A stretch of DNA of 63,938 bases, counting the filler, from Candidatus Tectimicrobiota bacterium (GTDB lineage Bacteria; JACPSX01): NCBI GenBank assembly GCA_016193065.1. It is 9 parts of 9 records of this genome, joined end to end, with 100 filler letters (N's around TTAATTAATTAA, not from the genome) between each part and the next. Parts side by side here need not be neighbours in the genome. Positions count along the whole stretch, not along the records: positions 38,832 to 43,436 come from JACPSX010000114.1; 8 more parts are not named here. One strand, 5' to 3'. The notes beneath the pieces are model-generated. The model did no database searches and was not told where the DNA came from. It worked only from the letters and a program-made list of their open reading frames with translations. Below, piece by piece: positions 17,677-48,113 of the stretch (position 1 is its first letter; every line of letters starts with the position of its first letter). Position numbers and translations under genes: made by a program.

Positions 17677-19587
17677 TTGGCCAACAACACCGACATCTCA
17701 ACCCTGATTACGCAGCTTCGCCAGCGCCTCGGGCTCAGCCAGGAAAAACTGGCGGCCCGGCTCCGGGTGTCCCTTCCAACAATCAACCGCTGGGAAAAAG
17801 GGAAAACGAAACCCGACTTATTGGCGCTGCACGCCGTCGAGGTGTTCATTCAACAGCTCGGCGCGGAGTACCAGGACCTCTGCAAGCGCTACTTTCCTAA
17901 TGAAACTGGAACTGCTCCACCGGTAGAGGTCTCTGAAACTCCGAGACGCGGACGTCACAAGCGCAAGACAACCCAAAATGGCCCAGGCAGCACAGAGCCC
18001 AACGGAGGCAACGGCTCTGTCCTCGACACCAAGTCAATGGAAGGACTCCTCTGGAAGGCGGCCTGTTCCATCCGGGGCGAAAAGGACGCGCCGAAATTCA
18101 AGGCCTACATCCTGCCGCTGGTCTTCATCAAACGGCTCTCTGACGTTTTCGAAGACGAAATCGCGCGCCTCACAGCGACATACGAGGACGAGGAGACCGC
18201 TCGCACGGTGTTGGAAACAGATCATAGCCTGGTTCGCTTCTATATCCCACAAGAAGCCACTTGGACGGTTGTGAGCGGCCGCCGGAAATTCGATTGGCCT
18301 GAAGACAAGAAACCAAAGACCCTGGGCGAACAGCTCACCAACACCATCCGCGCCATCGCCCGAGCCAACCCCTCGCTCCAGGGCGTCATCGATATCGCCG
18401 ACTACAACGAGACCCGTAACGGAGAACGGGAGATCAGCGACGAAGCTCTTTCGCGTCTGATCGAGCTCTTAAGCGATCCGCGCTACCGCTTGGGGTTAAA
18501 CGACGTGGAGCCTGACTTCCTCGGGCGTGCTTACGAATATTTGCTTCGCAAGTTCGCCGAGGGTCAGGGACAAAGCGCGGGTGAGTTTTTTACGCCTAAA
18601 GAAGTGGGTTGGCTGATCGCCTATCTCATGAAGGCCAAGCAAGGCGAAGAGGTCTATGACCCATGCTGCGGTTCCGGTGGATTGCTCATCAAGTGTCAGC
18701 TCGCTCTGAAAGAGCAGGAAAAGGAAATCGCCCGGCCTCTTCAGCTTTGCGGCCAGGAATTAACCGGTTCCTCCTTCGCCATTGCCCGGATGAACATGGT
18801 CCTTCACGATATGGAGGGAGAGATAGTCCGTGGCAACACGATGACCAATCCGAAGTTTCTCGACGGATCGAGCCTCAAGAAGTTCGATATCGTGGTGACG
18901 AATCCCATGTGGAACCAGAATAACTTCGATCCCGCCTCCTACGAAAACGATCCGTTCGAGCGCTTCACGGAACGCGGAGGATTCGCGCCCGCCTCGAGCG
19001 CCGACTGGGCCTGGCTCCAGCATGTCCTTGCTTCTCTCAATGACCACGGTCGCGCGGCCATGGTCATTGACACGGGTGCCGCAGGCCGCGGCAGTGGAAA
19101 TCAGGGGGAAAACAAAGAGAAGACGATCCGCCGGTGGTTCGTGGACAACGACGTGATCGAAGGTGTGATCCTGCTCCCGGATAACCTTTTCTACAACACC
19201 ACCGCTGCCGGAATCATCATCCTCCTTAATTGCAAGAAGCCTAAAGACCGGCAAGGCAAAGTCGTTCTCGTCAACGCGAGCAACGAATTCCAGAAAGGCC
19301 GGCCCAAGAACTTTATTCCCGACGAGTCGATTCAAAAGATCGCCGAAGCCTTTCATTTAGGCAAGGACCTCGAACGGTTCGTCAAGGCGGTACCGGTCGA
19401 AGAAATTGCCAAGAACGACTACAACCTCTCTCCATCCCGCTACATCGAAACCGCCGCCGCTACAGAGCACCGAGACGTCCAAACCATTCTGGATGAACTG
19501 GCAGGGCTTGAGGGCGATGCATCACGATTGGATCAGGAGATCAAAGAGATCTTTCGTGGGCTTGGATATCAATGGGGAGGAAAGTGA
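17677..19587 (+). CDS. hsdM: Type I R-M methyltransferase subunit with an N-terminal XRE/Cro HTH fusion
   Basis: HTH: LRQRLGLSQEKLAARLRVS-TINRWEKG. MTase motifs GEFFTP, YDPCCGSGG and NPMW (motif IV). Confidence 0.93.
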   Translation: MANNTDISTLITQLRQRLGLSQEKLAARLRVSLPTINRWEKGKTKPDLLALHAVEVFIQQLGAEYQDLCKRYFPNETGTAPPVEVSETPRRGRHKRKTTQNGPGSTEPNGGNGSVLDTKSMEGLLWKAACSIRGEKDAPKFKAYILPLVFIKRLSDVFEDEIARLTATYEDEETARTVLETDHSLVRFYIPQEATWTVVSGRRKFDWPEDKKPKTLGEQLTNTIRAIARANPSLQGVIDIADYNETRNGEREISDEALSRLIELLSDPRYRLGLNDVEPDFLGRAYEYLLRKFAEGQGQSAGEFFTPKEVGWLIAYLMKAKQGEEVYDPCCGSGGLLIKCQLALKEQEKEIARPLQLCGQELTGSSFAIARMNMVLHDMEGEIVRGNTMTNPKFLDGSSLKKFDIVVTNPMWNQNNFDPASYENDPFERFTERGGFAPASSADWAWLQHVLASLNDHGRAAMVIDTGAAGRGSGNQGENKEKTIRRWFVDNDVIEGVILLPDNLFYNTTAAGIIILLNCKKPKDRQGKVVLVNASNEFQKGRPKNFIPDESIQKIAEAFHLGKDLERFVKAVPVEEIAKNDYNLSPSRYIETAAATEHRDVQTILDELAGLEGDASRLDQEIKEIFRGLGYQWGGK

Positions 19588-20318
19588 TGACCACACTCGT
19601 ACCAACGGAACGTATTGACCACGCAATCCTTTTGATCCGAGGCCAGAAAGTCATGCTTGATGCGGATTTGGCTGAGCTTTACGGGGTCACAACCAAGGTG
19701 CTCAACCAGGCTGTGAATCGCAATAGGGACCGTTTTCCCGAGGATTTTATCTTTCAATTGACTGCCGACGAGAAAGCCAAGGTAGTCGCGAAGAGTCCCC
19801 ACCTTCAATGTCTGAAGTTCTCGTCTGTGCTGCCCTGCGCTTTCACTGAACCGGGGGCTGGCATGCTGGCGAGTGTCTTGCGCAGCCCAGCAGCTACTAA
19901 AATTTCTATCGAGGTTCTGCGCGCTTTCGCACGACTCCGCCAGGAAGAAGAACCAGAGCCGTTACCCGAGAACAGCGGTGCCCGCAACCTGTTCGCCGCG
20001 ATTCGCGATGCGATACTGCTCCAACCTGAAGACGAAATATACACCACAAGTGAGCCGTACACGTACTTCGTACAGGCTGGCGACCGGGGTCCCATCAAGA
20101 TTGGCTCGACCAGAAACCTGCTGGTCCGTCTACGTACTCTATGCGCGATGTCTCCCGTGCCGCTGAAGCTCTTGGGCGTGATGAAGGGTGATGCTGAGGA
20201 TCGGTGCCATCTCCGACTGGGCGCATTCCGCCTACATGGAGAATGGTTCGCTCCATCGTCCGTGGTGTTCGACTTCATTCGCGAGCATGCTGTGATACCC
20301 GAATCTGGAAGGGCATAA
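19587..20318 (+). CDS. ORF6N domain fused to a GIY-YIG (T5orf172/MUG113-like) nuclease domain
   Basis: IRGQKVMLDADLAELYGV...RNRDRFPEDFIFQL...AFTE, then YFVQA-GPIKIG...RL-L...E-CH...GEWF. Confidence 0.85.
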   Translation: MTTLVPTERIDHAILLIRGQKVMLDADLAELYGVTTKVLNQAVNRNRDRFPEDFIFQLTADEKAKVVAKSPHLQCLKFSSVLPCAFTEPGAGMLASVLRSPAATKISIEVLRAFARLRQEEEPEPLPENSGARNLFAAIRDAILLQPEDEIYTTSEPYTYFVQAGDRGPIKIGSTRNLLVRLRTLCAMSPVPLKLLGVMKGDAEDRCHLRLGAFRLHGEWFAPSSVVFDFIREHAVIPESGRA

Positions 20319-21595
20319 TGACCACCGATAACGGTCATGCTGAGATGCCGCAAGGATGGAGGAACGTTCCTCTTCGGTCGTTGTGCCTAAAAACTGAGTT
20401 GGCCGACCCAACGAAGAGTCCACATAAGTCTTTTCGATACATCGATGTCTCAGCCGTTTCGAATGGACTTTGGAAGATCATAAGCTCAACGGAACATACG
20501 GGTTCAACGGCACCGAGTCGTGCACGCAAGCTCGTGAAAGCCAATGATGTCATTTTCGCGACGGTGCGACCAACGCTGCGGCGGGTTGCTATGGTTCCAG
20601 ATCACCTGGATGGTCAGGTGGTTTCCACCGCTTTTTGCGTCATCCGAGTCAACCCCACACAGGCGGATGCTCTTTTCATTTACTACTCGCTCTTGACTGA
20701 CGAATTCCTTGATCGTATCGGGAACGTGCAACGAGGGGCCAGCTATCCTGCTGTGACTGACGGCGACGTTCTAAGGCAGGAGATACTTGTCCCTCCTCTT
20801 TCCGAGCAGTGCGCCATTGCGGCGGTGCTGTCGAAGATTCAGTCGGCTGTGGAGGTTCAGGAAAAGGTCGTCGCCACGCTGAAAGAGCTAAAAGCCGCAA
20901 CCATGGCTAAGCTCTTCCGGGAGGGCCTGCGTGGCGAGCCCCTCAAGCAAACCGAAATCGGCGAGATCCCGCAGACCTGGGACGTTGTCCGGCTTGGCAC
21001 CGTCGCCGAACTATTAAGCGGCGGAACACCTTCTAAGAGCCGCCCTGAGTGGTGGCGAGGACCGATTCCCTGGGCAAGCCCGAAGGACATGAAGCAGCCT
21101 CGATTGTGGGATACCCAAGACCACATTTCTCAAGAGGCCCTCGAAGATGGGTCTCGCCTAGTTCCTGCTAGAACGCTTTTTGTCGTCATTCGCGGAATGA
21201 TCCTTGCCAAGGACCTTCCGGTCGCAATGACTGAAGTCCCAATGGCATTCAACCAAGATATGAAGGCCGTCATACCGGCAGACTCAATTGACCCCGAGTA
21301 TCTCCTTTATGCAATTGTTTCTTGTAAAGATGCATTAACTCGCGAAATCGGCACCTCCGCGCATGGTACTCGACGCATGGGCACTTCGTCGTTGGAAGCA
21401 CTCCCAATCCCACGGCCGGAAAAGGATGAGCAGCGGGAGATCGCCAGAGCTATCCGAGCAGTTGAACAGCGAGAAGAGACGGCATTGAAAAGACGCGACC
21501 GGATCAAATCTCTCTTTTCCTCAATGCTGCACCTGCTCATGACCGGGGAAGTGCGGGTGAATCATTTAAAACTTAGCGAGGAACAAGATGGCTAA
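20318..21595 (+). CDS. hsdS: Type I R-M specificity subunit
   Basis: Two TRDs with conserved regions PPLSEQ-IA-VL, EIGEIP-WDVVRLG, GGTPS and EQREIA. Confidence 0.92.
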   Translation: MTTDNGHAEMPQGWRNVPLRSLCLKTELADPTKSPHKSFRYIDVSAVSNGLWKIISSTEHTGSTAPSRARKLVKANDVIFATVRPTLRRVAMVPDHLDGQVVSTAFCVIRVNPTQADALFIYYSLLTDEFLDRIGNVQRGASYPAVTDGDVLRQEILVPPLSEQCAIAAVLSKIQSAVEVQEKVVATLKELKAATMAKLFREGLRGEPLKQTEIGEIPQTWDVVRLGTVAELLSGGTPSKSRPEWWRGPIPWASPKDMKQPRLWDTQDHISQEALEDGSRLVPARTLFVVIRGMILAKDLPVAMTEVPMAFNQDMKAVIPADSIDPEYLLYAIVSCKDALTREIGTSAHGTRRMGTSSLEALPIPRPEKDEQREIARAIRAVEQREETALKRRDRIKSLFSSMLHLLMTGEVRVNHLKLSEEQDG

Positions 21596-22529
21596 GCAGA
21601 AGAGACAAGAGGCACCAAGTAAAGGTTTCGGTCTCTCCTTGATGGATCGGATTCAAAACGAGGGCTCGATCCACCATGAGGCAGTGCGAAGGGTTGAGTC
21701 AATCACCAAGCGGAATCTGATCTGCTATACGGCATTTCTCAGACATCCAGCAAGTACCATCATTCAGGAAGATAGCCAGTTTATCGAACACTTGCTTCGG
21801 TCAGTGAACCTCCAAGAGTATCCAGATACTCTTGACCTCCTACTGCATACTCCGGGTGGGGATCCAACCGCTGCAGAGCGCATTGTAAAGACCTGCAGAT
21901 CCTACGCTAAGTCCTTCCAGGTGATCGTTCCTCAGACTGCCATGAGTGCTGGGACACTTATCGCTATGGGCGCAGAATCAATCCTCATGACCGAAACTTC
22001 AGAGTTGGGTCCAATTGATCCACAAATGATCATATCAAGTGGCAAAGAGCAGACGTTACGACCGGCTGCAGCGTTTGTGGACGCCTATATGGATTTAATC
22101 AATAAATCACAGGAAGCGATTCGGAAAGGAGATCCCCCACATCCCTACATTGAACTCCTGCGGAGGATGGATCCCACATGGATTCAAGTTTGTCTCAAGG
22201 CTCGGGAACTCGCGCGAACTATCGCTGGAGAATTCTTAGAGCAGTACATGCTTAATGGAAAAGACAAGAAAGAAATCGAACGAACCGTCGAATGTTTTAT
22301 GAAAGAAGGTGAGTTGCTTTCCCATGGGCGAATCATCCGGCACGCTAAAGCCAAGGAGTACGGGTTAAACGTAAAAGTGATCCCGAAGGGAACCCCACTT
22401 GATGAAGCACTGTGGGAACTACAGACCCGCTGTGAAAACTACGTCCAGTCGCGGAGTCTCGCGAAGTACCTGGTTTGTCGTTCCGGTGGGATTAATGTCA
22501 GTGTGCGTATGCAGAGACTGTCCGTTTAG
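21588..22529 (+). CDS. ClpP-fold serine protease (SDH/SppA-like)
   Basis: LDLLLHTPGG, AMSAGT, LGPIDPQ and SHG. Confidence 0.85.
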   Translation: MAKQKRQEAPSKGFGLSLMDRIQNEGSIHHEAVRRVESITKRNLICYTAFLRHPASTIIQEDSQFIEHLLRSVNLQEYPDTLDLLLHTPGGDPTAAERIVKTCRSYAKSFQVIVPQTAMSAGTLIAMGAESILMTETSELGPIDPQMIISSGKEQTLRPAAAFVDAYMDLINKSQEAIRKGDPPHPYIELLRRMDPTWIQVCLKARELARTIAGEFLEQYMLNGKDKKEIERTVECFMKEGELLSHGRIIRHAKAKEYGLNVKVIPKGTPLDEALWELQTRCENYVQSRSLAKYLVCRSGGINVSVRMQRLSV

Positions 22530-22750
22530 ATAGAAGCATGGACCTGATATGAAAAATTCGCTTCGGCGACATAATTTGGCACTTCAGATTCCCCAGGCAA
22601 CTCAGCAGGTAGGTCTAAATAGAGAGAGCCTAATTTGTCAACCAGCTTCTGATACTGTTCAAAGTTCTTTAGGAGATCTTCCTCAGTGACTGAAGTAATC
22701 ATTTCAGATTCCAGACCTGTTGGTTCGAGATTCCGGATTTCCTTTTTCAC
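22526..22750 (-). CDS. Small acidic hypothetical protein, probably leaderless, convergent with the protease
   Basis: 74-aa ORF. TTGACG-N17-TATAGT places +1 at about the GTG start (22750). Confidence 0.55.
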   Translation of the reverse strand: MKKEIRNLEPTGLESEMITSVTEEDLLKNFEQYQKLVDKLGSLYLDLPAELPGESEVPNYVAEANFSYQVHASI

Positions 22751-22756
22751 AAGCGT

Positions 22757-22785
22757 ACTATACCCAAATCAGAGACCAGCGTCAA
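22757..22785 (-). promoter_or_regulatory. Sigma-70 promoter for the 74-aa ORF
   Basis: Minus strand TTGACG (22785-22780), 17-nt spacer, TATAGT (22762-22757). Confidence 0.6.
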
Positions 22786-22904
22786 GAGACTTCGAAAATT
22801 GGCTCCTTTCAAGGAATTGCAGCGCAATTATTTGCTGTAACCCATTCATCTCATTATGTTCTCATGATTTGGCCGTGTAATTGAGCGAAATCGGAGGTGG
22901 CGTC

Positions 22905-23039
22905 ATGCCCCTCAATCTCGGTTCCGAACGGGCCACAGTCCAAGACCCACTGATCGGTTACGCCGTTGAGATCGGGTGGGCCTATCTTTGTCCTTGGAAA
23001 AAGAATGGCAGCTTAAGAAACCAAGAGAGGGCGATATGA
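22905..23039 (+). pseudogene. Duplicated 5' remnant of hsdR (44-aa mini-ORF)
   Basis: MPLNLGSERATVQDPLIGYAVEIGWAYL vs HsdR MATSLASERATVQDPLISYAVEIGWAYL. RBS GGAGGT; its stop overlaps the MNT ATG. Confidence 0.8.
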
Positions 23040-23365
23040 AAGCGAGAAAGAAGGTCTTAAGCGAAGGGGTCCTTCAGGAAACCGTCCGGCGGATTGTTGA
23101 AGTTGCCAAGCCGGAGAAGATCATTCTTTTTGGCTCGGCGGCACGGGGTGAGCTGGGGCCGGACAGTGATCTGGATTTCCTGGTAATCAAGGCATGCAGT
23201 CACCGGCGGAATACGGCCCGCAGAATTCGACGTGCCCTGTTCGGTATTGGCGTGCCCATAGACATCATCGTTGCGAAACCGGAGGACATCGAACGCTACA
23301 AAGACGCGATAGGTCTCCTCTATCGTCCTGCCTTGAGGGAGGGAAAGGTCCTCTATGCCGCCTAA
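23036..23365 (+). CDS. Minimal nucleotidyltransferase (MNT) antitoxin
   Basis: PEKIILFGSAARG-DSDLDFLVI and EGKVLYAA. Confidence 0.9.
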   Translation: MKARKKVLSEGVLQETVRRIVEVAKPEKIILFGSAARGELGPDSDLDFLVIKACSHRRNTARRIRRALFGIGVPIDIIVAKPEDIERYKDAIGLLYRPALREGKVLYAA

Positions 23366-23594
23366 GACTGATCCCACTGGACAACCAAAGGAATGGCTGC
23401 GGCGTGCGAAGGGTGAGGGTCACTCAATCCCTCAGGAGATATGGGAAGCAGTTGATCTAACCGATTATGCGGTTGAGACCCGCTATCCAGGACCGGCGGA
23501 ACCAGTAACACAGAAGGAGTATCGAGCAGCAGTTAGGATAGCCGAGCAAGTCGTTAAGTGGGCAGGAAGAATTATCTCAGGAAAACAGCGATAA
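23355..23594 (+). pseudogene. HEPN domain protein, internally deleted
   Basis: EWLRRAK N-terminus joined directly to LTDYAVETRYPG...A-RIAEQV. The central QQAAEK/THDL region is missing. Confidence 0.7.
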
Positions 23595-23600
23595 AGAGCC

Positions 23601-26489
23601 ATGGCAACTAGCCTCGCCTCGGAAAGAGCTACGGTCCAAGACCCACTGATCAGCTACGCCGTTGAGATCGGGTGGGCCTACCTGTCACCAGAGCAAGCCC
23701 TGAGCCTCCGGCGAGGGGAAAGCGGCACGCTTCTGTACCAGGTCCTTCGCGATAAACTTATCGCTCTCAATCCGGGCGTTGTGACCATGGAAACCGTCGA
23801 TCAGGTCATTTCGAGAATCGAGAACGTCCGCAACAACATCGAGGGGAATGCCGAGGTGCTGGCATGGCTACGAGGTGAACGCTCGGTCTACGTGGAGAGC
23901 GAGAAGCGCCAGAGGAACGTTACGCTTATCGACTTTGAACACCCCGCCCACAACGTCTTCCACGTCTCCGACGAGTGGGAATACACAAACGGACGGCACA
24001 CAAACCGAGCCGATGTAATGTTTCTCATCAACGGCGTCCCCCTGGCACTGGTCGAGACCAAGGGCGCAACGAAACAGGACGGGATCGATGAGGGGGTCAC
24101 TCAGATCCGGCGCTACCACCGGGAGACGCCGGAACTCATGACCGCAACGCAGGTGTTTGATGTCACTCACCTCATCGACTTCTATTACGGAGTCACCTGG
24201 AACCTGGATCGTAAGGACCTCTTCAACTGGAAAGACGAGGAGAAAGGCCACTTCGAGAAGAAGGTAAAAAGATTCTTCAGCCGGGAGCGTTTTCTCAAGC
24301 TGGTTGGAGAATGGATCGTATTCTTCAAGAGAGATGACGAACTGCGAAAGATCGTCTTGCGGCAGCACCAGACACGGGCGGTGGAAAAGGTCGTCGAGCG
24401 CACTCTCGACCCGGAGAAGAAAAGGGGCTTGGTGTGGCACACACAGGGGTCCGGAAAAACCTTCACGATGATCAAGGCAGCCGAACAAATCCTCCAGCAT
24501 TCGGCCTTCGAGAAGCCCACAGTCATCATGCTGGTAGACCGAAATGAGCTGGAAGGCCAGCTTTCCGGTTGGATTGCGAGTGTACTGGGTGCGGGTAAGG
24601 CAGAGCCCGCCTACAGCAAGCAACGTCTGCGCGAACTTTTGCGTTCGGACTACCGCGGCCTCATCGTCTCGATGATTCACAAATTCGACCGTGCAGACGC
24701 AGACCTTTGCACACGAGAAAACGTCTTTATTCTGGTGGATGAGGCCCACCGGAGCATGAGCGGAGACCTGGGTAACTACCTCGTGGCCGCCCTGCCCAAC
24801 GCCACGATGATCGGCTTTACCGGCACGCCGATCGACAAGATCGCCTACGGCAAAGGAACCTTTAAAGTATTCGGCAAGGACGACCCGAAAGGCTACCTGG
24901 ACAAGTACTCCATTTCCGAGTCTATCGAGGATGGAACGACACTGCCGCTCCATTACACGCTGGCACCGAACGACATCCGCGTGCCTCCCGATCAACTGGA
25001 GAGAGAGTTCTTCGATCTGGTGGAGGCCGAAGGGATCAGTGATATCGAGGAGCTGAACAAGATTCTTGACAAGGCAGTGAATCTGAAGGCCTTCCTCAAG
25101 GCCTCCGACCGGGTCGAAAAGGTGGCTCACTATGTCGCTCGCCACTTCCGCGAGAACATCCAACCTCTGGGCTACAAGGCTTTTCTCGTGGGGGTCGATC
25201 GGGAAGTCTGTGCTCTCTACAAGAACGCTCTGGACCGGCAACTGCCGGCGGATTACTCAACCGTCGTTTATACCTCTGCCCATAACGACAGCGAGCTGCT
25301 GGCCCAATACCGTCTTAGTGAAGAAGGCGAAAAGAAGATCCGCAAAGCGTTTCTCAAGAGGGATGCGCTCCCAAAAATCCTCATCGTTACTGAAAAGCTG
25401 CTGACGGGCTTTGATGCTCCGATTCTTTACTGCATGTACCTGGACAAGCCGATGCGGGATCACACACTGCTCCAGGCAATCGCTCGGGTCAACCGTCCCT
25501 ACGAGGAAGAGGGAGAAATCAAGAAGCCGGCGGGGTTCGTTCTCGATTTCGTTGGGATCTTTGCCAAGCTTGAGAAGGCACTGGCCTTCGATTCGGATTT
25601 TGTCGGAAGCGTCATCCAGGATCTGGACGTCCTCAAGCACCGCTTCTCCATGCTCATGACGGACCAGGCGCCAGAGTATCTCGCCCTCTCCCAGGGCCGT
25701 ATTGATGACAAGGCTGTTGAGCGCGCCATCGAAACCTTTGCCGATCAGGAGAAGCGCAACAGGTTCTATAAGTTCTTCAGAGAAATCGAGATGCTCTACG
25801 AGATCATCTCGCCGGATATATTCCTCCGGGAACATCTAGACAACTATGGAAAGCTCTCAGTCCTGTACGAGATCGTCCGAAATAACTTTGCCAAGCGCGT
25901 TGCCCTCTCCAAGGATATAGCGAAAAAAACCGAGGGGTTAATCCGTGAACAAGCTGAAGCCTATGGGCTTAAAACGGCCATGCCGATCGTGGAGATCGAT
26001 GAGAAAACCATTGACGCCTTGAGGAAGTCGGGTCCATCAGACCCTGCGAAGGTGATCAACCTGGGGAAAAGCCTGGCCAAGAAAGTTTTTGAGGAAGCCG
26101 AGCGGGCCCCCTATCTGATACCGATCGGCGAGCGCGCTGAAGCGATCCTTGATTCTTACGACGACCGGCAGATGACTACGCAGGAAGCATTTGAGCGGAT
26201 CCGGGCATTAATGGAGCAATACCTTCAGGCACATAAGGAGCGAGAAAAGTCCGGATTCGACGACAACACGTTCGCAGTTTATCTGGTGCTAAGACAGTTC
26301 GGCGCGTCTCAGCCAGAGAAAGTCGCGCCTTTGGTCAACTCCGCCTTTCAACGATTCCCAAACTACGGGTACAACACTTCGGAGCAGCGCCATCTCAAGG
26401 CCGAGCTATACAAGGTGCTGTTACGCGCAGTCGGAAAGGAACGCATGGTGGATCTGGCGGAAAATCTCCTCCGGCTGCCGCGAAAATGA
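23601..26489 (+). CDS. hsdR: Type I R-M restriction subunit
   Basis: D-x13-ETK nuclease motif, WHTQGSGKT, DEAHR, GFTGTP, LLTGFDAP and QAIARVNR. Confidence 0.95.
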   Translation: MATSLASERATVQDPLISYAVEIGWAYLSPEQALSLRRGESGTLLYQVLRDKLIALNPGVVTMETVDQVISRIENVRNNIEGNAEVLAWLRGERSVYVESEKRQRNVTLIDFEHPAHNVFHVSDEWEYTNGRHTNRADVMFLINGVPLALVETKGATKQDGIDEGVTQIRRYHRETPELMTATQVFDVTHLIDFYYGVTWNLDRKDLFNWKDEEKGHFEKKVKRFFSRERFLKLVGEWIVFFKRDDELRKIVLRQHQTRAVEKVVERTLDPEKKRGLVWHTQGSGKTFTMIKAAEQILQHSAFEKPTVIMLVDRNELEGQLSGWIASVLGAGKAEPAYSKQRLRELLRSDYRGLIVSMIHKFDRADADLCTRENVFILVDEAHRSMSGDLGNYLVAALPNATMIGFTGTPIDKIAYGKGTFKVFGKDDPKGYLDKYSISESIEDGTTLPLHYTLAPNDIRVPPDQLEREFFDLVEAEGISDIEELNKILDKAVNLKAFLKASDRVEKVAHYVARHFRENIQPLGYKAFLVGVDREVCALYKNALDRQLPADYSTVVYTSAHNDSELLAQYRLSEEGEKKIRKAFLKRDALPKILIVTEKLLTGFDAPILYCMYLDKPMRDHTLLQAIARVNRPYEEEGEIKKPAGFVLDFVGIFAKLEKALAFDSDFVGSVIQDLDVLKHRFSMLMTDQAPEYLALSQGRIDDKAVERAIETFADQEKRNRFYKFFREIEMLYEIISPDIFLREHLDNYGKLSVLYEIVRNNFAKRVALSKDIAKKTEGLIREQAEAYGLKTAMPIVEIDEKTIDALRKSGPSDPAKVINLGKSLAKKVFEEAERAPYLIPIGERAEAILDSYDDRQMTTQEAFERIRALMEQYLQAHKEREKSGFDDNTFAVYLVLRQFGASQPEKVAPLVNSAFQRFPNYGYNTSEQRHLKAELYKVLLRAVGKERMVDLAENLLRLPRK

Positions 26490-38831: not shown

Positions 38832-39605
38832 CATTCCGTTGAGTTCCTGCATCTCGGTCTCGGTGATCGTGCCCGCCAGCTCCCCCAGGATTCGTTTGGC
38901 TCCCTCCTCCACATCGGCGCGCACCAGGGGTGCAGCCAGATAATCGGGGAAATAGTGCCGATCGTCTTCCAGAAGTATCAGATCGAATTTCCGGATGTCT
39001 CCGTCCGTCGAGTAGACATCCGTCAAGTCCAGTTTGTTCTCCCGGATCGCCTGGTAGGCCAGGCCGTGCTCGATTCCCGAAGGCCTCACGGTGAGCCCGT
39101 AGGTACGGGCCAGTCCGGGCCAGCCGTCCTGCCGGTTGAGGAACTCCAGGCTGAAGCCAAAGCGCAGGCCCGGCAACCGGGACAAATCGCTGATCCTCTT
39201 CAGACCCAACTTCTCGGCCAGGTTTCGACTTACGGCAATCGCGTAAGTGTTGCTGAAGCCGAAGGAGTCCAGAAGATCCAAACCAAACTGACTTTTCAGA
39301 CGGCGGCGCAACTCGCCATACGAGACCCTCTCGGGCAACTTCAGGACCGCCTGCTCCAAGGTCCCCGAATATTCCGGGTAAAGGTCGATGCCACCGTTGC
39401 GCAGGGCGTCAAAACAAATGAGCGTCCCCCCCAAGCCGAACTTCCTATCCACCGCGAAGCCGCGGTCTTCCAGGAGCTGGGCCAGAATCTCCGAAAGGAT
39501 GTAGCCCTCGTTGAAATGCTTGGAGCCCACCACAATGGTCCGCTGCGGAGCCGGGGCGCTCCTTCCCGGCCAAAGCAGAAGAAGGAACACTGCGGCCAGC
39601 GCCAT
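38832..39605 (-). CDS. OpuAC/OsmF/EgtU-type betaine ABC substrate-binding domain (3' truncated), in frame with the upstream ATPase
   Basis: VVGSKHFNE, GLGGT, IDLYPEYSGT, GFSNTYA, R-DG-PGL, YSTDG and LEDD-FPDY. Confidence 0.88.
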
Positions 39606-40211
39606 GGGTGCCTCCCGGAGATCGTGGGTGACCAGGATCATGGTCCTCGCTTCGAGCTTCTGCAGGTGCAAGAATTCCTGATGAATCTCGTTGCGGGTCA
39701 TGGGATCAAGGGCTCCAAACGGTTCGTCCAGGAGAAAGATCTTTGGATTCAGAATCATGGCCCGGCACAGTCCCACCCTCTGCTGCTGCCCGCCGCTGAG
39801 CTCGTAGGGGTATCTCCGCTCAAAAGAAAGCGGAAGGTCCACCAACCGCATGAGATCCTGACCTCGGGCCCGGACTCGTTCGGGCTCCCAGCGGGCGAGC
39901 CTGGCCAGCAGCGTGATGTTTTCCCAGACCGTCAGATGCGGGAACAGGCCCGTACCCTGCACCGCATAACCGATCCGCAAGCGGAGCTGCGGCAGCCGTT
40001 CGTAGTCGATGGGATTCCCAAAGACGGAAACCTTCCCCCGAGTGGGCCGGATGAGCCCGTTGATCAACTGCAAGAGGGTCGATTTTCCGCTGCCGCTGGG
40101 GCCCACCACGGCCGTGGTCACAAGATCCGTGAAGGCAAGGTGAATGTCTGCAAGGGCCGTTTCGCCGCCGTAGAACTTGCTGACTCCTTCCAGGAAGACC
40201 TGGGAGCCCAC
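39606..40211 (-). CDS. OpuBA/ProV-type ABC ATP-binding protein, C-terminus missing and fused to the SBP
   Basis: GPSGSGKS, LSGGQQQR, LLDEPFGALD and VTHD. The sequence after HDLREA is absent. Confidence 0.85.
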
Positions 40212-40243
40212 TCCCCCTTCTCCTTCCACGGAGCAGAGCCTCA

Positions 40244-41563
40244 CTAGAGGGCGCAGGTGCGAAAGCCGGCAAAAACGTCCCGGCGGTCCGCCGTGTAGAA
40301 ATTCCGCCAGGTGTTGCGGATCAAGCGGGAGCCCGTGGCCCAGCATCCCCCCCTCAAGACCTTGTGGGTTCCAAACCAGGGCTGGGAATACTCTTTATAC
40401 GGATCCACCACAAAATCCGGATAGGCTCCGAAATCCGTGCCCGTCCACTCCCACACGTTCCCGATCATCTGCCGGCATCCAAAAGCGCTGTCGCCGGCGG
40501 GAAGGGAGCCCACGGCAATGCAGCCAAGCCTCGCAAAGTCCAGGTGAGCCCGCTCTGTTGAAGGGGGCTCGTCTCCCCACGGATACCGCCGCTTTCGCTC
40601 CGCGCTCTCGCGGCCACCGGGCAACGGATCTAAGCTGGCCGCCATCTCCCATTCAGCTTCCGTCGGCAGTCGCCGCCCCGCCCACCGGCAATAGGCATCC
40701 GCTTCGTACCAGTTCACGTGAATGATCGGGAGGTGGTCCTCCAGCGAAACGAGCTGGTCAAAGCTGCGGTCCCGCCAGCGCCCCCCGGCCCCGCGCTCCC
40801 AGTAGACCGGCTGGCTGGCGCCGGACTCTTCCCGCCAGATCCAGCCCGCAGCGCTCCAAAACTCCCGGCGCCGGTAGCCACCATCCTCTACAAATGCGGC
40901 AAACTCGGCGTTCGTCACAGGGGCGCGCGCGATTCGGAAGGTCCGCACCTGGACAGGGTGAGCCCATTTCTCGTTGTCAAACACGAACGCGAGGTCAGAC
41001 GTGGCCCCAAGCCAGTAGGTGCCGCCGGGGATCTCCACATCCCCGGGCAGCGGCCCGCCGGCGGGTTCGGAATGAACCTGAGCCGGGATGTCCAAGAGAT
41101 GAGGCCGGGAGTAGCCGAGCGTCTGTCGCGTATAGGTGAAAGCCTCTGCGTGCATGCCCGTGTGGAAAGCCGCCAGGTGATGGAAGTAATCTTCCTCAGC
41201 ACTCGGCTCGATGGAGCTGAGGCGATCGAGCACCCGGTCCCGCACCTCCTGGACGTAGCGGAAGGTTTCCTGCCGGGCAGGCAGCGGCAGATCCCAGCGG
41301 GAATCGTGGGGGACAAGGGCGGAGTCGTAGAGGGCGTCCCCATCCGGGCGGATCGGCTTTGCCCTGCCCAGGTGCCGCAAGACCCATTTTTCCGCAAACC
41401 ATGCGACATGGCCGATTTCCCAGAGCGGGGGATTGACGATCGACAAGCGGGGCCCCATCATCTGCTCGTCCGTCAGGTCTGCGACGAGATCCACGGCGAC
41501 TCCGTGAGTCTCGCTCACCAGTTGAGCCAGCTCAGAAGCGGCGGTTAAGGATTCTATTTTCAT
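40244..41563 (-). CDS. senA: Selenoneine synthase SenA-like (EgtB family DinB + FGE-sulfatase enzyme)
   Basis: NPPLWEIGHVAWF, LYDSALVPHDSRWDLPLP, FHTGMHAEAF (iron ligands), FVFDNEK, RRLPTEAEWE, GNVWEW and YKEYSQPWFG. N-terminal motifs fit the SenA branch better than canonical EgtB (from recollection). Confidence 0.75.
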   Translation of the reverse strand: MKIESLTAASELAQLVSETHGVAVDLVADLTDEQMMGPRLSIVNPPLWEIGHVAWFAEKWVLRHLGRAKPIRPDGDALYDSALVPHDSRWDLPLPARQETFRYVQEVRDRVLDRLSSIEPSAEEDYFHHLAAFHTGMHAEAFTYTRQTLGYSRPHLLDIPAQVHSEPAGGPLPGDVEIPGGTYWLGATSDLAFVFDNEKWAHPVQVRTFRIARAPVTNAEFAAFVEDGGYRRREFWSAAGWIWREESGASQPVYWERGAGGRWRDRSFDQLVSLEDHLPIIHVNWYEADAYCRWAGRRLPTEAEWEMAASLDPLPGGRESAERKRRYPWGDEPPSTERAHLDFARLGCIAVGSLPAGDSAFGCRQMIGNVWEWTGTDFGAYPDFVVDPYKEYSQPWFGTHKVLRGGCWATGSRLIRNTWRNFYTADRRDVFAGFRTCAL

Positions 41564-41608
41564 AACTCCTCCTGAAGCGCCTCAGGCAAGCGGTGGTTGG
41601 GCCGTGCT

Positions 41609-42718
41609 CTATTCCCAGACGGCTCGGGCCGCCTCCACGACCAAATGGAGTTTTTTCTTCTGTGCCTCGGGGGTGAGGCGGTTTCCCAGAACCGAGGAGG
41701 AGAAGCCGCACTGGGGGGATAAGGCCAGTTGCTCCAGAGCCAGATAGCAGCCCGCCTCCCGGAGTCGCGCGCGGATCTCTTCCGGAGTTTCCAACCGGGA
41801 GTTCTTCGTGGTGATCAATCCCAGGACGGCGATCTTGTCCTCGGGTACCTCGCGCAGGGGCTCGAAGGACCCGGAGCGCGCGTCGTCGTACTCAAGCAGC
41901 AGGCGTTGCGCCTTCACGCTCCGGAAGATCCGCCGGGAAATCTTCTCATACCCGCCCCGGGCCAGCCACCGGCTGCCCTGGTTTCCCCGTCACAGGTGAA
42001 AGCCGAAGGTCACGCCGGGGAAGCTTCCCATCACGGCATTGTCCATCTCGATCCCTTGCCCCAACCAGCGATCCAGGCTCCACCCCTGCCCCTCGTAAAA
42101 AGCCCGGGTCCGCGGATCCACCAACAAACCGTAATGAGGGGCATCGATCTGGATGTAGAGGGCCCCCAGGCGGACCAGCTCGGCCACCTCCTCCTGCAGG
42201 ATCTCCACCACATCGGCCAGAAAAGAATCGAGGGTCGGATAAACCTCCCTGGAGCGCTCGGACGACCAGAAGCTGGCGAACAAGCTGGGGCTCGGCAAAG
42301 TCACCTTGGCGGTTTTGCGGGTCCGGCCCCGCAGGTAGGTGAACTCTTCCGCCGAAAGGTGACGCCGGCGGTGGAGTTTGCCAACGACCCCCAGAGAAGC
42401 TGGACGGGACAGGCTCCAGTTTCCCACCTCTTCATCCCCATGCCAGTGGCCCCATAGAAACGCATCGCTGCTGTACTCGCCAAACCCCTGGACAGCTTCC
42501 GTCATCTGGCTTTGAAACGACTGGCGGCGCATCTCGCCATCGCTTACCACTTCCAGTCCTGCCTCCTCCTGGAGGGATACAGCCTCATCGACCGCCCGAT
42601 CCTCAATGGCCTTAAAGGCCGAATCGCTGATCGCTCCCGCCGCCACTTCCTGCCGGGCCTTGAACAGCCAGGGCGGGCGCAGCAGGCTGCCCACCGTATC
42701 CGCGCGGACCGTGATCAT
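41609..42718 (-). CDS. Cobalamin-independent methionine synthase II-like (core MetE) protein with in-frame UGA (predicted Sec) at 41990-41992
   Basis: VGSLLRP, SDGEMRR, YIQIDAP, HL*RGN, GGYE, LEYDDARSG and LSPQCGF. The two tracked ORFs are in the same frame and join across the UGA. Confidence 0.85.
41959..41989 (-). promoter_or_regulatory. Putative bacterial SECIS element
   Basis: After UGA: CGGGGAAACCA-GGGCAGCC-GGU-GGCUG(G)CCC. Stem-loop with a G-led apical loop 19 nt from the UGA. Confidence 0.6.
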
Positions 42719-42728
42719 TCACCTGACC

Positions 42729-43436
42729 TCAAGAGCGAGTCGCCGAAAGGGAAAGGGCGAAGAAGTTTTCCGCGTCCGTCTCCCAGCGCAGAAGCTTTAG
42801 CCCGGCTTCTTCCAGCATTTCTTCCACCATCCTCCGGGTGTACTTGCAACTGATCTCCGTGCGGATCGATTCTCCCTTGGCAAAGTCAACCGCCAGACCG
42901 ATCTCATCGATCCAGGCGCGGTGGGACTCCCGGGCTACGAGGTGCATCTCGATTCGTGATTCCCGCTCGTTGTAAAACGCCAGGTGATCGAAGAGATCCA
43001 GCTTAAAATCCGCCCCCAGATGCTGATTGATGACCGACAGCATGTTCCGGTTAAAGGCCGCCGTTACTCCCGCGGAGTCGTTGTAGGCCCTCTCCAGAAG
43101 GGCGACATCCTTGACCAGGTCTGTACCCAGCAGAAATCGATCCTGGGGGATGAGAAGCCTTGCCACATTGCGCAGAAAGGCGACGGCTTCCTCGGCAGTG
43201 AGGTTTCCAATGGTGCTCCCCAGGAAGGCAACCAGACGGCGCCCCTCTTCCGGGGGCAGTTCGACGGGGAGGTTGAAGTCTCCGGTCACGCCGCGCACCC
43301 GCAATCCCGGATAGTCATTTTCCAGGGCCCGGGCCGTCTCCTGGATCATGTCTTCACTTAAATCAATCGGCACATAGAGATCCAGGAGCCTATGACACGC
43401 CATGGCATCGAGCAGGACCCGGGTCTTCCGGCAGTT
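42729..43436 (-). CDS. egtD: Histidine N-alpha-trimethyltransferase (5' truncated)
   Basis: KTRVLLDA, YVPIDLS, FLGSTIGN, GTDLVKD, AYNDSAGVTAAFN, RIEMHL and IRTEISCKY. Confidence 0.92.
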   Translation of the reverse strand, partial: NCRKTRVLLDAMACHRLLDLYVPIDLSEDMIQETARALENDYPGLRVRGVTGDFNLPVELPPEEGRRLVAFLGSTIGNLTAEEAVAFLRNVARLLIPQDRFLLGTDLVKDVALLERAYNDSAGVTAAFNRNMLSVINQHLGADFKLDLFDHLAFYNERESRIEMHLVARESHRAWIDEIGLAVDFAKGESIRTEISCKYTRRMVEEMLEEAGLKLLRWETDAENFFALSLSATRS

Positions 43437-43536
43437 NNNNNNNNNNNNNNNNNNNNNNNNNNNNNNNNNNNNNNNNNNNNTTAATTAATTAANNNNNNNN
43501 NNNNNNNNNNNNNNNNNNNNNNNNNNNNNNNNNNNN
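43437..43536. other. Artificial contig spacer
   Basis: N-TTAATTAATTAA-N. Confidence 0.98.
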
Positions 43537-46904: not shown

Positions 46905-48113
46905 TCATTCTTCCTCGGATTCCAGGAAACGTTCAGCGGCCATGGCAGCCATGCACCCCATGCCGGCTGCCGTGATGGCCTGCCGGTACACCCGGTCCAC
47001 CACATCGCCGGCAGCAAATACTCCGGGCACCGATGTCTTGACGCCTTCGCGGGTGATCAGATAACCATCGGAGTCCATTTCCAGAAGGCCTCGCAGAAAG
47101 CCCGTGTTTGGGGTGTGACCGATGGCGATGAAGACCCCTTCACAGGGGAGCTCCGAGACCTCCCCAGTCTTGAGGTTGCGAAGCCGCACGCCGACCACCT
47201 TGCCTTGTTCAGCGTCCAGCACTTCGCTGATCCCCGAATTCCAGATGAAGCGGATTTTGCTGTTGCGGTGGGCGCGGTCCTGCATGACTTTTGAGGCTCT
47301 GAGCTTATCCCGCCGGTGGACGACGGTGACCGTGCGAGCGAACTTGGTCAGGAACAAAGATTCTTCCATGGCCGTATCCCCCCCTCCGACCACGACCACA
47401 TCCTGATCCTTGAAGAAGAAGCCGTCGCAGGTCGCGCAGGCGGAGACTCCATGTCCAAGAAGCTTTTGCTCGGAGGGGAGGCCCAGAAAGCGGGCGCTGG
47501 CCCCGGAGGCGATGATGATGGTTTTTCCCCGGTACGCGTCGCCATCGGCTTCGATTGTGTAAGGCCGCCGGGAGAGGTCGATTTTGCTCACTTCGCTGGA
47601 AACGAAGGTGGTGCCGAAGCGCTCCGCCTGCTTCTTCATCTCCTCCATCAGTTCCGGTCCCAATATCCCCCGGGGGAAACCGGGATAATTCTCCACATCG
47701 GTCGTGATCGTGAGTTGGCCTCCGGGCTGGGCCCCGGAAATGACCAGAGGCGCCAGGTTGGCCCTGGCTGCGTAGATGGCGGCTGTCAAGCCCGCCGGGC
47801 CCGATCCGACGATGATCACCGCATGCTCCTTACCTTCTTCGCGCGGTTTGGATGCGGGGCGAATTTCCAGAAGGGAGTTGAGTTCGCCGCGCCTTTCGAG
47901 GGCCCTCAAATCATCGTATCCGCCAACCGATTTGCCGCTGACGAAGATCTGCGGAACGGTTTGCCTGCCGGATCTCTCCCGCGCCTCTTCCCGCTTGACA
48001 GAGTCATCAGTTACATCGGTTTCCGTGAAATGAACTCCTTTTTCCCTGAGCAGTACTTTAGCCAGACGGCAGTAGGGACAGTTGCTCTTGGTGTACACCT
48101 CCACGAGAGCCAT
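46905..48113 (-). CDS. trxB: Glutaredoxin 3 - thioredoxin reductase fusion
   Basis: N-terminal CPYC, TVPQIF and GGYDD, then GSGPAG, ENYPGF, SACATCDG, GGGDTA and YRQAITAAG. Confidence 0.92.
   Translation of the reverse strand: MALVEVYTKSNCPYCRLAKVLLREKGVHFTETDVTDDSVKREEARERSGRQTVPQIFVSGKSVGGYDDLRALERRGELNSLLEIRPASKPREEGKEHAVIIVGSGPAGLTAAIYAARANLAPLVISGAQPGGQLTITTDVENYPGFPRGILGPELMEEMKKQAERFGTTFVSSEVSKIDLSRRPYTIEADGDAYRGKTIIIASGASARFLGLPSEQKLLGHGVSACATCDGFFFKDQDVVVVGGGDTAMEESLFLTKFARTVTVVHRRDKLRASKVMQDRAHRNSKIRFIWNSGISEVLDAEQGKVVGVRLRNLKTGEVSELPCEGVFIAIGHTPNTGFLRGLLEMDSDGYLITREGVKTSVPGVFAAGDVVDRVYRQAITAAGMGCMAAMAAERFLESEEE

Follow-up and report, generated by a model that had tools for sequence, protein, structure and literature searches.

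The stretch analysed in this study (hereafter the window, 63,938 bases) comprises nine contigs of a fragmented metagenome-assembled genome (MAG) of Candidatus Tectimicrobiota bacterium (GCA_016193065.1), joined by spacers of the form N44-TTAATTAATTAA-N44. One contig of 4605 bp (38832-43436, GC 0.62) carries a minus-strand gene for a methyltransferase resembling the methionine synthase MetE, which is flanked by egtD and senA and interrupted by a single in-frame TGA codon (Table 1). This TGA most likely encodes selenocysteine (Sec, U) at the zinc site of the enzyme.

Two open reading frames (ORFs), 41990..42718 (242 aa, ending in GFHL and the TGA) and 41609..41917 (102 aa), lie in a common minus-strand frame. 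When the TGA is read as U, a protein of 369 aa is obtained (...TFGFHL-U-RGNQGSRWLARGGYE...GGYE...LLLEYDD...SPQCGF...), in which U243 is the sole non-standard step. A sequence-only reading of this DNA had proposed one frame broken only by this TGA and had predicted that gene callers would split the gene; the ORF listing and the translation bore out its coordinates and motifs, and the protein collection indeed holds the 242-aa and 102-aa pieces as separate entries. We consider it highly probable that the two ORFs constitute one selenoprotein gene with UGA 243 decoded as Sec.

Table 1. Features of the contig at 38832-43436. Zinc-ligand assignments follow passages of PMC7857596; nt positions within the hairpin are counted from the U of UGA; SECIS, selenocysteine insertion sequence; rows refer to the alignment used for the tree.
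Feature	Position	Strand	Description
MetE-like (PF01717) gene	41609..42718	minus	369 codons and TAG stop; single in-frame TGA
TGA, codon 243	41990..41992	minus	proposed Sec codon; occupies the first Cys position of the H-x-C zinc motif
His241 codon	41996..41998	minus	zinc ligand by homology; 115/115 Sec rows, 83/83 Cys rows
Glu276 codon	41891..41893	minus	zinc ligand by homology; invariant in Sec and Cys rows
Cys337 codon (SPQCGF)	41708..41710	minus	zinc ligand by homology; 115/115 Sec rows, 81/83 Cys rows
SECIS-like hairpin of the window	41957..41981	minus	nt 12-22 pair with nt 26-36
Family-wide helix	41960-41977	minus	nt 16-22/26-33
Hairpin loop	41968-41970	minus	G23 G24 U25
egtD	42729..43436	minus	L-histidine N-alpha-methyltransferase; truncated at the 5' end by the contig border, N spacer at 43437
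senA	40244..41563	minus	selenoneine synthase family; starts 45 nt past the MetE-like stop
ATP-binding cassette (ABC) ATPase and betaine-type substrate-binding domain	38832..40346	minus	one frame; cut by the contig end

The MetE-like fold and its predicted zinc site

The read-through product matched Pfam Meth_synt_2 (PF01717) over residues 8-365 with 54.8 bits (cut-off 21). The best NCBIfam models, PRK06520 (247.3 bits, cut-off 313) and PRK06233 (216.1 bits, cut-off 576), were both below their cut-offs, the canonical MetE model TIGR01371 scored 44.5 bits against a cut-off of 929.95, and no '(seleno)protein' model of NCBIfam claims the sequence. With 369 aa, the protein is not a canonical two-domain MetE, which has about 750 aa and an N-terminal folate-binding domain. 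By sequence, the closest solved structure is that of an uncharacterised protein from Listeria monocytogenes (1YPX; E 7.4e-45, residues 5-368), and MesD (3RPD) was matched with E 1.7e-10. An AlphaFold2 model from a 20-row alignment (predicted local distance difference test, pLDDT, 85.1; predicted template-modelling score, pTM, 0.88) has the predicted barrel fold of the MetE C-terminal domain, and it matched the MetE catalytic barrel, 1YPX and 3RPD with template-modelling scores (TMq) of 0.72-0.75 (Foldseek, 1T7L, E 2.3e-18).

The database search returned 7999 relatives among the 8000 scored. The 120 best homologues are 66-73% identical to the window protein, nearly all of 369-372 aa, and all 120 have Cys at the column of the UGA, in agreement with the sequence-only reading, which had placed this codon on the zinc-ligand Cys of the H-x-C motif. 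Cys-containing relatives are 67-73% identical, and H241-x-C243-R-G-N-Q was invariant in 19/19 aligned homologues. According to passages of PMC7857596, the zinc ligands of E. coli MetE are His641, Cys643, Glu665 and Cys726, and homocysteine is bound by Ser433, Glu484 and Asp599. The zinc-ligand equivalents by alignment are H241, U243 (for Cys), E276 and C337, and the homocysteine-binding equivalents are S11, E62 and D192 (aligned with 3RPD), these three being invariant in 115 Sec and 83 Cys rows. By this alignment, the TGA falls exactly on the first zinc-ligand Cys, and the in-frame UGA forms a Sec/Cys pair with the homologues.

Recurrence of the TGA and the hairpin behind it

Six sequencing runs contain part of the stretch, none of the six being listed as RNA; four of them, from one groundwater-metagenome study, contain most of it. 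Each of these four has a contig spanning 41990-41992 with 0 differences, namely runs X1 (contig of 2950 nt, depth 29.6) and X2 (2326 nt, depth 5.8), which are possible sources of the MAG, and runs X3 (1050 nt, depth 8.6) and X4 (1137 nt, depth 8.7), which represent other samples. A one-off assembly slip is excluded because the contigs of the four runs are identical over the TGA, which is thereby confirmed at contig level. Runs X1-X3 also contain unitigs of 31-36 nt with one mismatch and a depth of 27-83, covering the TGA-plus-hairpin stretch only (41963-42007); these probably stem from other, more abundant groundwater organisms that share this very conserved stretch.

Genomes representing 185,579 species, one genome per species, were scanned with a degenerate pattern encoding H-x-TGA-R-G-N-Q-x-x-R-W, for which, on our estimate, some 0.5 matches would be expected by chance (41 bits against 1.2e12 positions). 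The TGA was found at the zinc-motif Cys column in at least 119 loci of these species-representative genomes. Among the matches listed, every locus is an in-frame MetE-like gene; the frame stays open for 125-139 codons past the TGA, to the usual ...VWG-type C-terminus, in 110, while eight run off the locus end and L025 is broken, and L051 is broken upstream. The labels of the organisms with these matches, many of them uncultured, include Chloroflexota/Dehalococcoidia, Poribacteria, Binatia, Methylomirabilota, 'Deltaproteobacteria'/Myxococcota, Thermodesulfobacteriota, Acidobacteriota, Gemmatimonadota, Latescibacterota, Nitrospinota, Planctomycetota, Verrucomicrobiota and Bacteroidota. The highest identities to the window protein among them are 77% (L009), 75.5% (L097, Thermoanaerobaculia label) and 74.5-74.7% (L008 and L074).

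A MetE-like match was present in 105 of 151 genomes from the phylum of the genome that holds L008 (G003): the eight best full-length matches (70-74% identity) and one partial match have exactly one TGA each, and the matches of at most 65% identity have no TGA. A protein-query scan of metagenomes gave 60 loci. The motif was present in 65 of the loci L128-L217, with TGA in 31, TGC in 23 and TGT in 11; the remaining 25 loci are either partial or remote paralogues. Both the TGA and the TGC/TGT forms asked after in the sequence-only reading thus occur among homologues, and the 150 Sec loci reduce to 114 distinct full-length Sec forms.

The ratio of nonsynonymous to synonymous substitution rates (dN/dS) was estimated by ungapped codon comparison of the window with 12 Sec relatives. 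It was 0.13-0.28 over the 125 codons after the TGA and 0.08-0.19 over the 242 codons before it (L021 excluded, its N-terminal register being off); these are rough values, finite in both halves for 10 of the 12 relatives, as dS is near saturation. Both halves of the gene are clearly constrained by this codon comparison, and the relaxed selection on the C-terminal half that would have spoken against a selenoprotein is replaced by purifying selection. Orthologues from several lineages retain the UGA, and the frame behind it is open and under constraint.

The hairpin described in the sequence-only reading, immediately behind the UGA and with a G-led loop, is present in the window as GGGCAGCC-GGU-GGCUG(G)CCC, its loop G lying 19 nt past the UGA. 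In the GC-rich DNA of the window, this hairpin is by itself not above chance, and its support comes from the comparison with relatives. Across the family, the hairpin begins 13 nt after the TGA, has the loop G-(G/U)-U at nt 23-25 and contains the pairs 16-33, 17-32, 18-30, 19-29, 20-28, 21-27 and 22-26. Over 127 Sec forms, these seven pairs were 94.2% paired, double-sided changes numbered 12 against 3.3 in shuffles (0/500 as high), and pairing fell to 11.8-68.6% when the 3' partners were slid by 1-3 columns. Pair 18-30, in which the third codon bases of Gly248 and Leu252 (both synonymous) meet, is CG in 102 Sec forms, GC in 6, AU in 2, GU in 2 and UG in 1. Cys forms were 73.1% paired, with all seven pairs in 0/17 versus 78/127 of the Sec forms, and they retained pair 18-30 in 24% and pair 16-33 in 29% of cases.

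The loop differs likewise: nt 23-25 are GGU (99) or GUU (28) in 127/127 Sec forms versus GCU (12), GAU (3) and GGU (2) in 17 Cys forms (Fisher p 1.6e-18, uncorrected for relatedness). The Arg250 codon (nt 22-24) is CGG in 98, CGT in 29 and AGG in 3 of 130 distinct Sec forms, never CGC or CGA; Arg244 in the same 130 genes is encoded by CGC (69), CGG (34), CGA (17), CGT (8) and AGG (2), and Arg250 in 23 distinct Cys forms by CGC (18), CGA (2), AGA (1), AGG (1) and CGG (1). The conserved hairpin expected in homologues thus covaries and is specific to the TGA forms, and, by this comparison rather than by single-sequence stability, which is not significant, the apical-loop G and the hairpin are conserved beyond protein demand. 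An Rfam search of 41850-42100 found no SECIS family, only two chance-level matches (E 1.3 and 3.1).

The evolution of the Sec and Cys forms was analysed with FastTree on 198 rows (115 Sec, 83 Cys), with column 243 masked in all Sec rows as well as in the 23 locus-derived Cys rows. Parsimony gave at least 11 Sec/Cys changes, compared with a mean of 63.6 for shuffled labels; well-supported branches alone give at least 2, and the tree does not settle their direction. Large all-Sec clades are formed by Binatia/Myxococcota/'delta' labels (33 rows, support 100), Dehalococcoidia/Chloroflexota (22-25 rows), Poribacteria (14-17 rows), and Methylomirabilota plus Thermoanaerobaculia labels; the last clade includes the window, which is sister to L009/L159 (support 99).

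Selenocysteine machinery and gene neighbourhood

The closest Sec forms among the matches listed belong to the genomes G001-G005 (loci L009, L097, L008, L074 and L021, respectively). SelB scored above its curated cut-off in 5/5 of these genomes versus 2/14 control genomes, and tRNA-Sec (anticodon tca) was detected by ARAGORN in 3/5; the check for Sec machinery that the sequence-only reading had suggested thus came out in favour of Sec, in relatives only. RF01852 alone over-calls, its best matches in G002 and G004 being tRNA-Ser by ARAGORN. In the phylum of G003, SelB was found in all eight genomes with full-length Sec forms and was lacking from the one with the partial form (G125); being present in 134/151 genomes there, it fails as a separator of Sec-form from Cys-form genomes. 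Within the operon, TGA also acts as an ordinary stop, namely that of egtD; the code has thus not been reassigned, and recoding would be site-specific.

The truncated egtD product matched Methyltransf_33 with 243 bits (profile positions 90-301 of 304) and TIGR03438 with 247.4 bits, which is below the cut-off of 290.9 because the gene is truncated; its stop lies 10 nt ahead of the MetE-like start. On the other side, the senA product belongs to the SenA equivalog (NF041186, 504.6 bits, cut-off 420) and stayed below the cut-off of the EgtB model (TIGR03440, 333.9 bits, cut-off 360). Neither senB nor senC lies on the 4.6-kb contig. In the ABC gene at the contig end, the ATPase ends just past the H-loop and is followed by a signal-peptide-like stretch and the betaine-type binding domain; two overlapping pieces occur in L009, and L009, L008, L019, L055 and L160 have ATPase plus permease/binding-protein genes at the corresponding place. 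The joining of the two domains could reflect a genuine fusion, but also a frameshift or a short deletion, and the layout appears to resemble the fused permease/binding-protein arrangement of ergothioneine transporters.

To describe the neighbourhood across the family, 873 neighbour ORFs of 180 loci were clustered and the frequent clusters were named. Sec genes are followed by SenA in 21 loci, by SelD/SenC in 15 and, mostly downstream, by SenB (TIGR04348, 403.5 bits) in 13, and EgtD lies upstream in 21. At least one of senA, senB, senC/selD and egtD occurs within 3.5 kb in 28 of the at least 119 species loci and in 1/30 Cys loci; the corresponding figure for all Sec loci is 40/150, not de-duplicated, as L128-L135 partly repeat genomes already present in the first set. 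Two architectures recur, namely egtD - MetE(Sec) - senA - ABC transporter (window, L009, L097, Methylomirabilota) and MetE(Sec) - senC - senB (Poribacteria), and L068 unites egtD, transporter, MetE(Sec), senA and senC. Genome-wide, SenA was above the cut-off in 4/5 Sec-form genomes of the Binatia/'delta' type, the fifth having contig-end pieces. SenB-like matches of 96 bits in G001 and G003 were rejected as SenB, with 26-28% identity to the Poribacteria protein and no SelD alongside. MetH was above the cut-off in 3/5 closest genomes, and MetE halves were found in G005 and G003; because MetH or MetE is also present, the Sec form is not the sole methionine synthase there.

Other neighbours were recorded as well. 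An Amidohydro_2 gene (PF04909) lies near the Sec gene in 27 loci (clusters of 14 and 13, including L058, L098 and L115), in most cases as the same-strand gene immediately upstream. In 19 Binatia-type loci, a TauE/SafE exporter is encoded downstream in the opposite orientation, and a PEMT/ICMT-like methyltransferase occurs in 12 loci. In 7 metagenome Cys-form loci (L177-L202), an ATP-grasp protein and a radical SAM (seleno)protein with a CUAEP/CCAEP tail (NF040546, 607 bits), which is related to the arsinothricin enzyme ArsL, are encoded downstream; this ArsL-like neighbourhood hints that the MetE-like family may methylate homocysteine analogues with other heteroatoms.

Elsewhere in the window, 46905-48113 (minus strand) encodes a glutaredoxin fused to a thioredoxin reductase (TIGR01292, 414 bits; Grx3, 104 bits), and the model of the glutaredoxin-like 'Uxx-star' (seleno)proteins was matched weakly, below its cut-off. 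At 17677-26489 (plus strand), genes for a Clp-like SDH protease and for an MntA-like nucleotidyltransferase are interspersed with those of a type I restriction-modification system (hsdM with an N-terminal helix-turn-helix domain, hsdS and hsdR).

Decoding, function and comparison with known systems

Under the interpretation that we favour, SelB would bind the G23-loop hairpin and bring Sec-tRNA to the UGA at codon 243. The product would be a stand-alone MetE catalytic barrel of 369 aa, in which Sec replaces the first zinc-site Cys and zinc is bound by His241, Sec243, Glu276 and Cys337. A homocysteine-like amino acid would then be activated, at its thiol or selenol, by zinc with a selenolate ligand and would take up a methyl group from a donor. 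The presence of selenium in the protein and the role of Sec as a zinc ligand are inferred from the sequence comparisons described above.

Several observations weigh against Sec decoding or against a link to selenoneine. The 64 kb of the window contain no tRNA, and no Sec gene was found among the 48 ORFs scanned. As a single sequence, the hairpin did not fold beyond shuffles (z -0.29; 63/200 shuffles as good). Its four inner pairs result from the way Ser-Arg-Trp-Leu is encoded (AGC-CGN-UGG-CUN) and occur in Cys forms too; the core of the hairpin is therefore pre-formed by the protein sequence, and Sec specificity is confined to the loop base and the three outer pairs. No correction for shared ancestry enters the Sec/Cys statistics, and the sample of Cys DNA is small (17-23 distinct sequences). 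The run evidence consists of Logan contigs rather than raw reads and comes from a single study. As to selenoneine, 91 of the at least 119 species loci lack both sen genes and egtD within 3.5 kb, SenA was above the cut-off in only 1/5 Chloroflexota-type Sec-form genomes (controls 0/14), and SenB reached its cut-off in 0/5 of G001-G005, which are incomplete MAGs (best 96.7 bits against 300).

Decoding without Sec could take three forms. A nonsense mutation or assembly error in a pseudogene would need one base change from TGC or TGT; the MAG is fragmented, and two of the related loci (L025 and L051) carry further breaks. The identical contigs of four runs, the return of the codon in at least 119 species with the frame open downstream, the low dN/dS after the TGA, the invariant catalytic residues past it and the Sec-specific constraints at synonymous sites nevertheless make this account hardly credible. 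Alternatively, the TGA could be a true stop, with a 242-aa polypeptide and a separately initiated C-terminal piece assembling into the enzyme, as the two ORFs listed by gene callers, the adjacent MetE halves in G003 and the split forms discussed in passages of PMC7857596 might suggest. The first possible start past the TGA in the window lies 24 codons on, and the RGNQGSRWL... stretch directly behind the TGA is among the most conserved of the protein. At all of the at least 119 loci, R-G-N-Q (invariant by the search pattern) and further conserved residues precede this start, no conserved ribosome-binding or start signal accompanies it, and the break falls exactly on a metal ligand rather than at a domain boundary. 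A two-piece enzyme is very improbable, because the 24 codons between the TGA and the next start are highly conserved. Read-through without Sec, by near-cognate Trp or Cys or under a reassigned code, would agree with the detection of tRNA-Sec in only 3/5 relatives and with the inferred status of selenium in the protein; it is quite improbable in view of the TGA stop of egtD, the Cys column, the G at nt 23, which is invariant here and shared with the SelB-binding element, and SelB in 5/5 relatives.

With the Sec form as the preferred decoding, its function would most likely be tied to selenoneine, hercynine or selenium metabolism and not to housekeeping methionine synthesis, a role proposed from the egtD/senA operon and from the senC/senB neighbours in Poribacteria. 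A folate-independent housekeeping methionine synthase that regenerates methionine (S-adenosylmethionine) for the three methylations by EgtD, or whose placement is incidental, is a possible but doubtful alternative. The invariant zinc ligands and homocysteine-binding Ser/Glu/Asp, the identity of about 70% across phyla and the 91 Sec loci without sen neighbours agree with it, against which stand MetH or MetE in 4/5 closest genomes, the sen/egtD linkage with varied gene orders under at least five phylum-level labels (Methylomirabilota, Acidobacteriota, Poribacteria, Latescibacterota and Planctomycetota), and the lack of a methyl-donor partner (corrinoid protein or MesX) among the 26 conserved neighbour clusters scanned. 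That the enzyme methylates selenoneine or ergothioneine (to Se-methylselenoneine in the former case), or another selenol of the pathway, appears rather unlikely. Its operon partners, egtD and senA or senC and senB, would fit such a step, and zinc-thiolate methyltransferases act on thiols and selenols generally; yet the residues binding a free alpha-amino group are conserved (as far as the residues given in passages of PMC7857596 indicate) and selenoneine has a trimethylammonium group, and Cys forms are common without sen genes (1/30 Cys loci with).

Sec might serve the zinc site in several ways. As a softer and more acidic ligand, it might tune zinc for selenol substrates; it might also withstand the oxidative inactivation to which the zinc-site Cys of MetE is prone, or function as a methyl relay. 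We propose, tentatively, a previously unlisted and widespread selenoprotein family in which Sec is a catalytic-zinc ligand of a methyltransferase and which would be a fourth, overlooked component of selenoneine-type clusters, either methylating selenohomocysteine or another selenol or serving as a selenolate methyl relay; the repeated Cys/Sec switching (11 changes) may have been eased by the Ser-Arg-Trp-Leu codons that pre-form the SECIS core, one loop base and a few synonymous changes sufficing.

A Sec-containing branch of MetE-like methyltransferases stands as genuine, widespread and recurrently placed in selenoneine-type clusters, and it is apparently unlisted so far. The main text, including Table 1, of a May 2026 review of 119 prokaryotic selenoprotein families and subfamilies (PMC13188914) has no MetE-like family and no precedent for a Sec-zinc methyltransferase, as far as the parts available show, and its supplementary lists may differ. 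No methionine-synthase-like family is named in the main-text parts available of the deep-Sep paper (PMC12013277). The full-text literature gave nothing relevant that joins selenoprotein or selenoneine with methionine synthase, and supplements or database annotation may hold the family. PMC10418091 concerns MtaA-like proteins, a different family, and the 'Mes-like' protein of PMC12366255 is given no function in the passages available.

The family has implications for annotation and biochemistry. In at least 119 species genomes, the gene is split into two 'fragments' by gene callers and missed by annotation and selenoproteome censuses. Its recurrent position next to egtD, senA, senB and senC suggests that the selenoneine or selenium metabolism of bacteria includes a step, or a support function, that has gone unrecognised. 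The natural Sec/Cys pair, with both forms abundant, suits testing what such an enzyme gains from selenium, and the hairpin would be a clear case of a coding sequence pre-adapted to become a SECIS.

Compared with the senABC selenoneine cluster (bioRxiv 10.1101/2022.04.13.486033), the window has an adjoining SenA equivalog, and relatives carry senC and senB; senB and senC are not adjacent in the architecture of the window. The available parts of that preprint describe some clusters in which egtD and a transporter lie together with the sen genes, and the main text names no MetE-like gene.

Like the SECIS of E. coli fdhF, the element is a coding-region hairpin just past the UGA. Passages of PMC8659212 describe the E. 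coli element as a stem-loop of nt 15-31, 11 nt from the UGA, in which U17, G23 and U24 are critical; the present loop has G at nt 23 and U at nt 24 (28/127) or nt 25. It differs in having no bulged U17, a 3-nt loop and a helix of nt 16-33 that is partly dictated by Ser-Arg-Trp-Leu codons and present in Cys forms.

The protein shares length, domain and the H-x-C-R-G-N, E and C motifs with the stand-alone 'methionine synthase II' type (1YPX; B. subtilis YxjG/YxjH type; PRK06520/PRK06233), from which it differs by Sec (TGA) in place of Cys and by scores below both NCBIfam cut-offs. No function of the stand-alone 1YPX/YxjG-type subfamily was reported in the literature searched, and no experiment on any member was found there. 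With MetE and MesA-MesD (PMC7857596), the protein shares the His/Cys/Glu/Cys zinc site, the homocysteine-binding Ser/Glu/Asp and the TIM barrel, as far as passages of that paper indicate, and with MesA-D the absence of a folate-binding N-terminal domain. It is only distantly related to both MesD (3RPD) and MetE and, unlike MesA-MesD, has no corrinoid or MesX partner near the gene. The passages of Price et al. 2021 (PMC7857596) that were available do not mention YxjG/YxjH, Listeria, 1YPX or selenocysteine, nor describe MetE or MesA-MesD with Sec.

The closest parallel for the proposed zinc site is found among redox enzymes. In [NiFeSe] hydrogenase and formate dehydrogenase, Sec ligates redox-active Ni, Mo or W. 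In these enzymes and in the MetE-like protein alike, Sec replaces a Cys that ligates the catalytic metal; unlike in them, the metal here would be zinc, in a methyltransferase. If Sec is indeed the zinc ligand, the roles of Sec would widen beyond redox chemistry and Ni, Mo or W to the tuning of Lewis-acid zinc.

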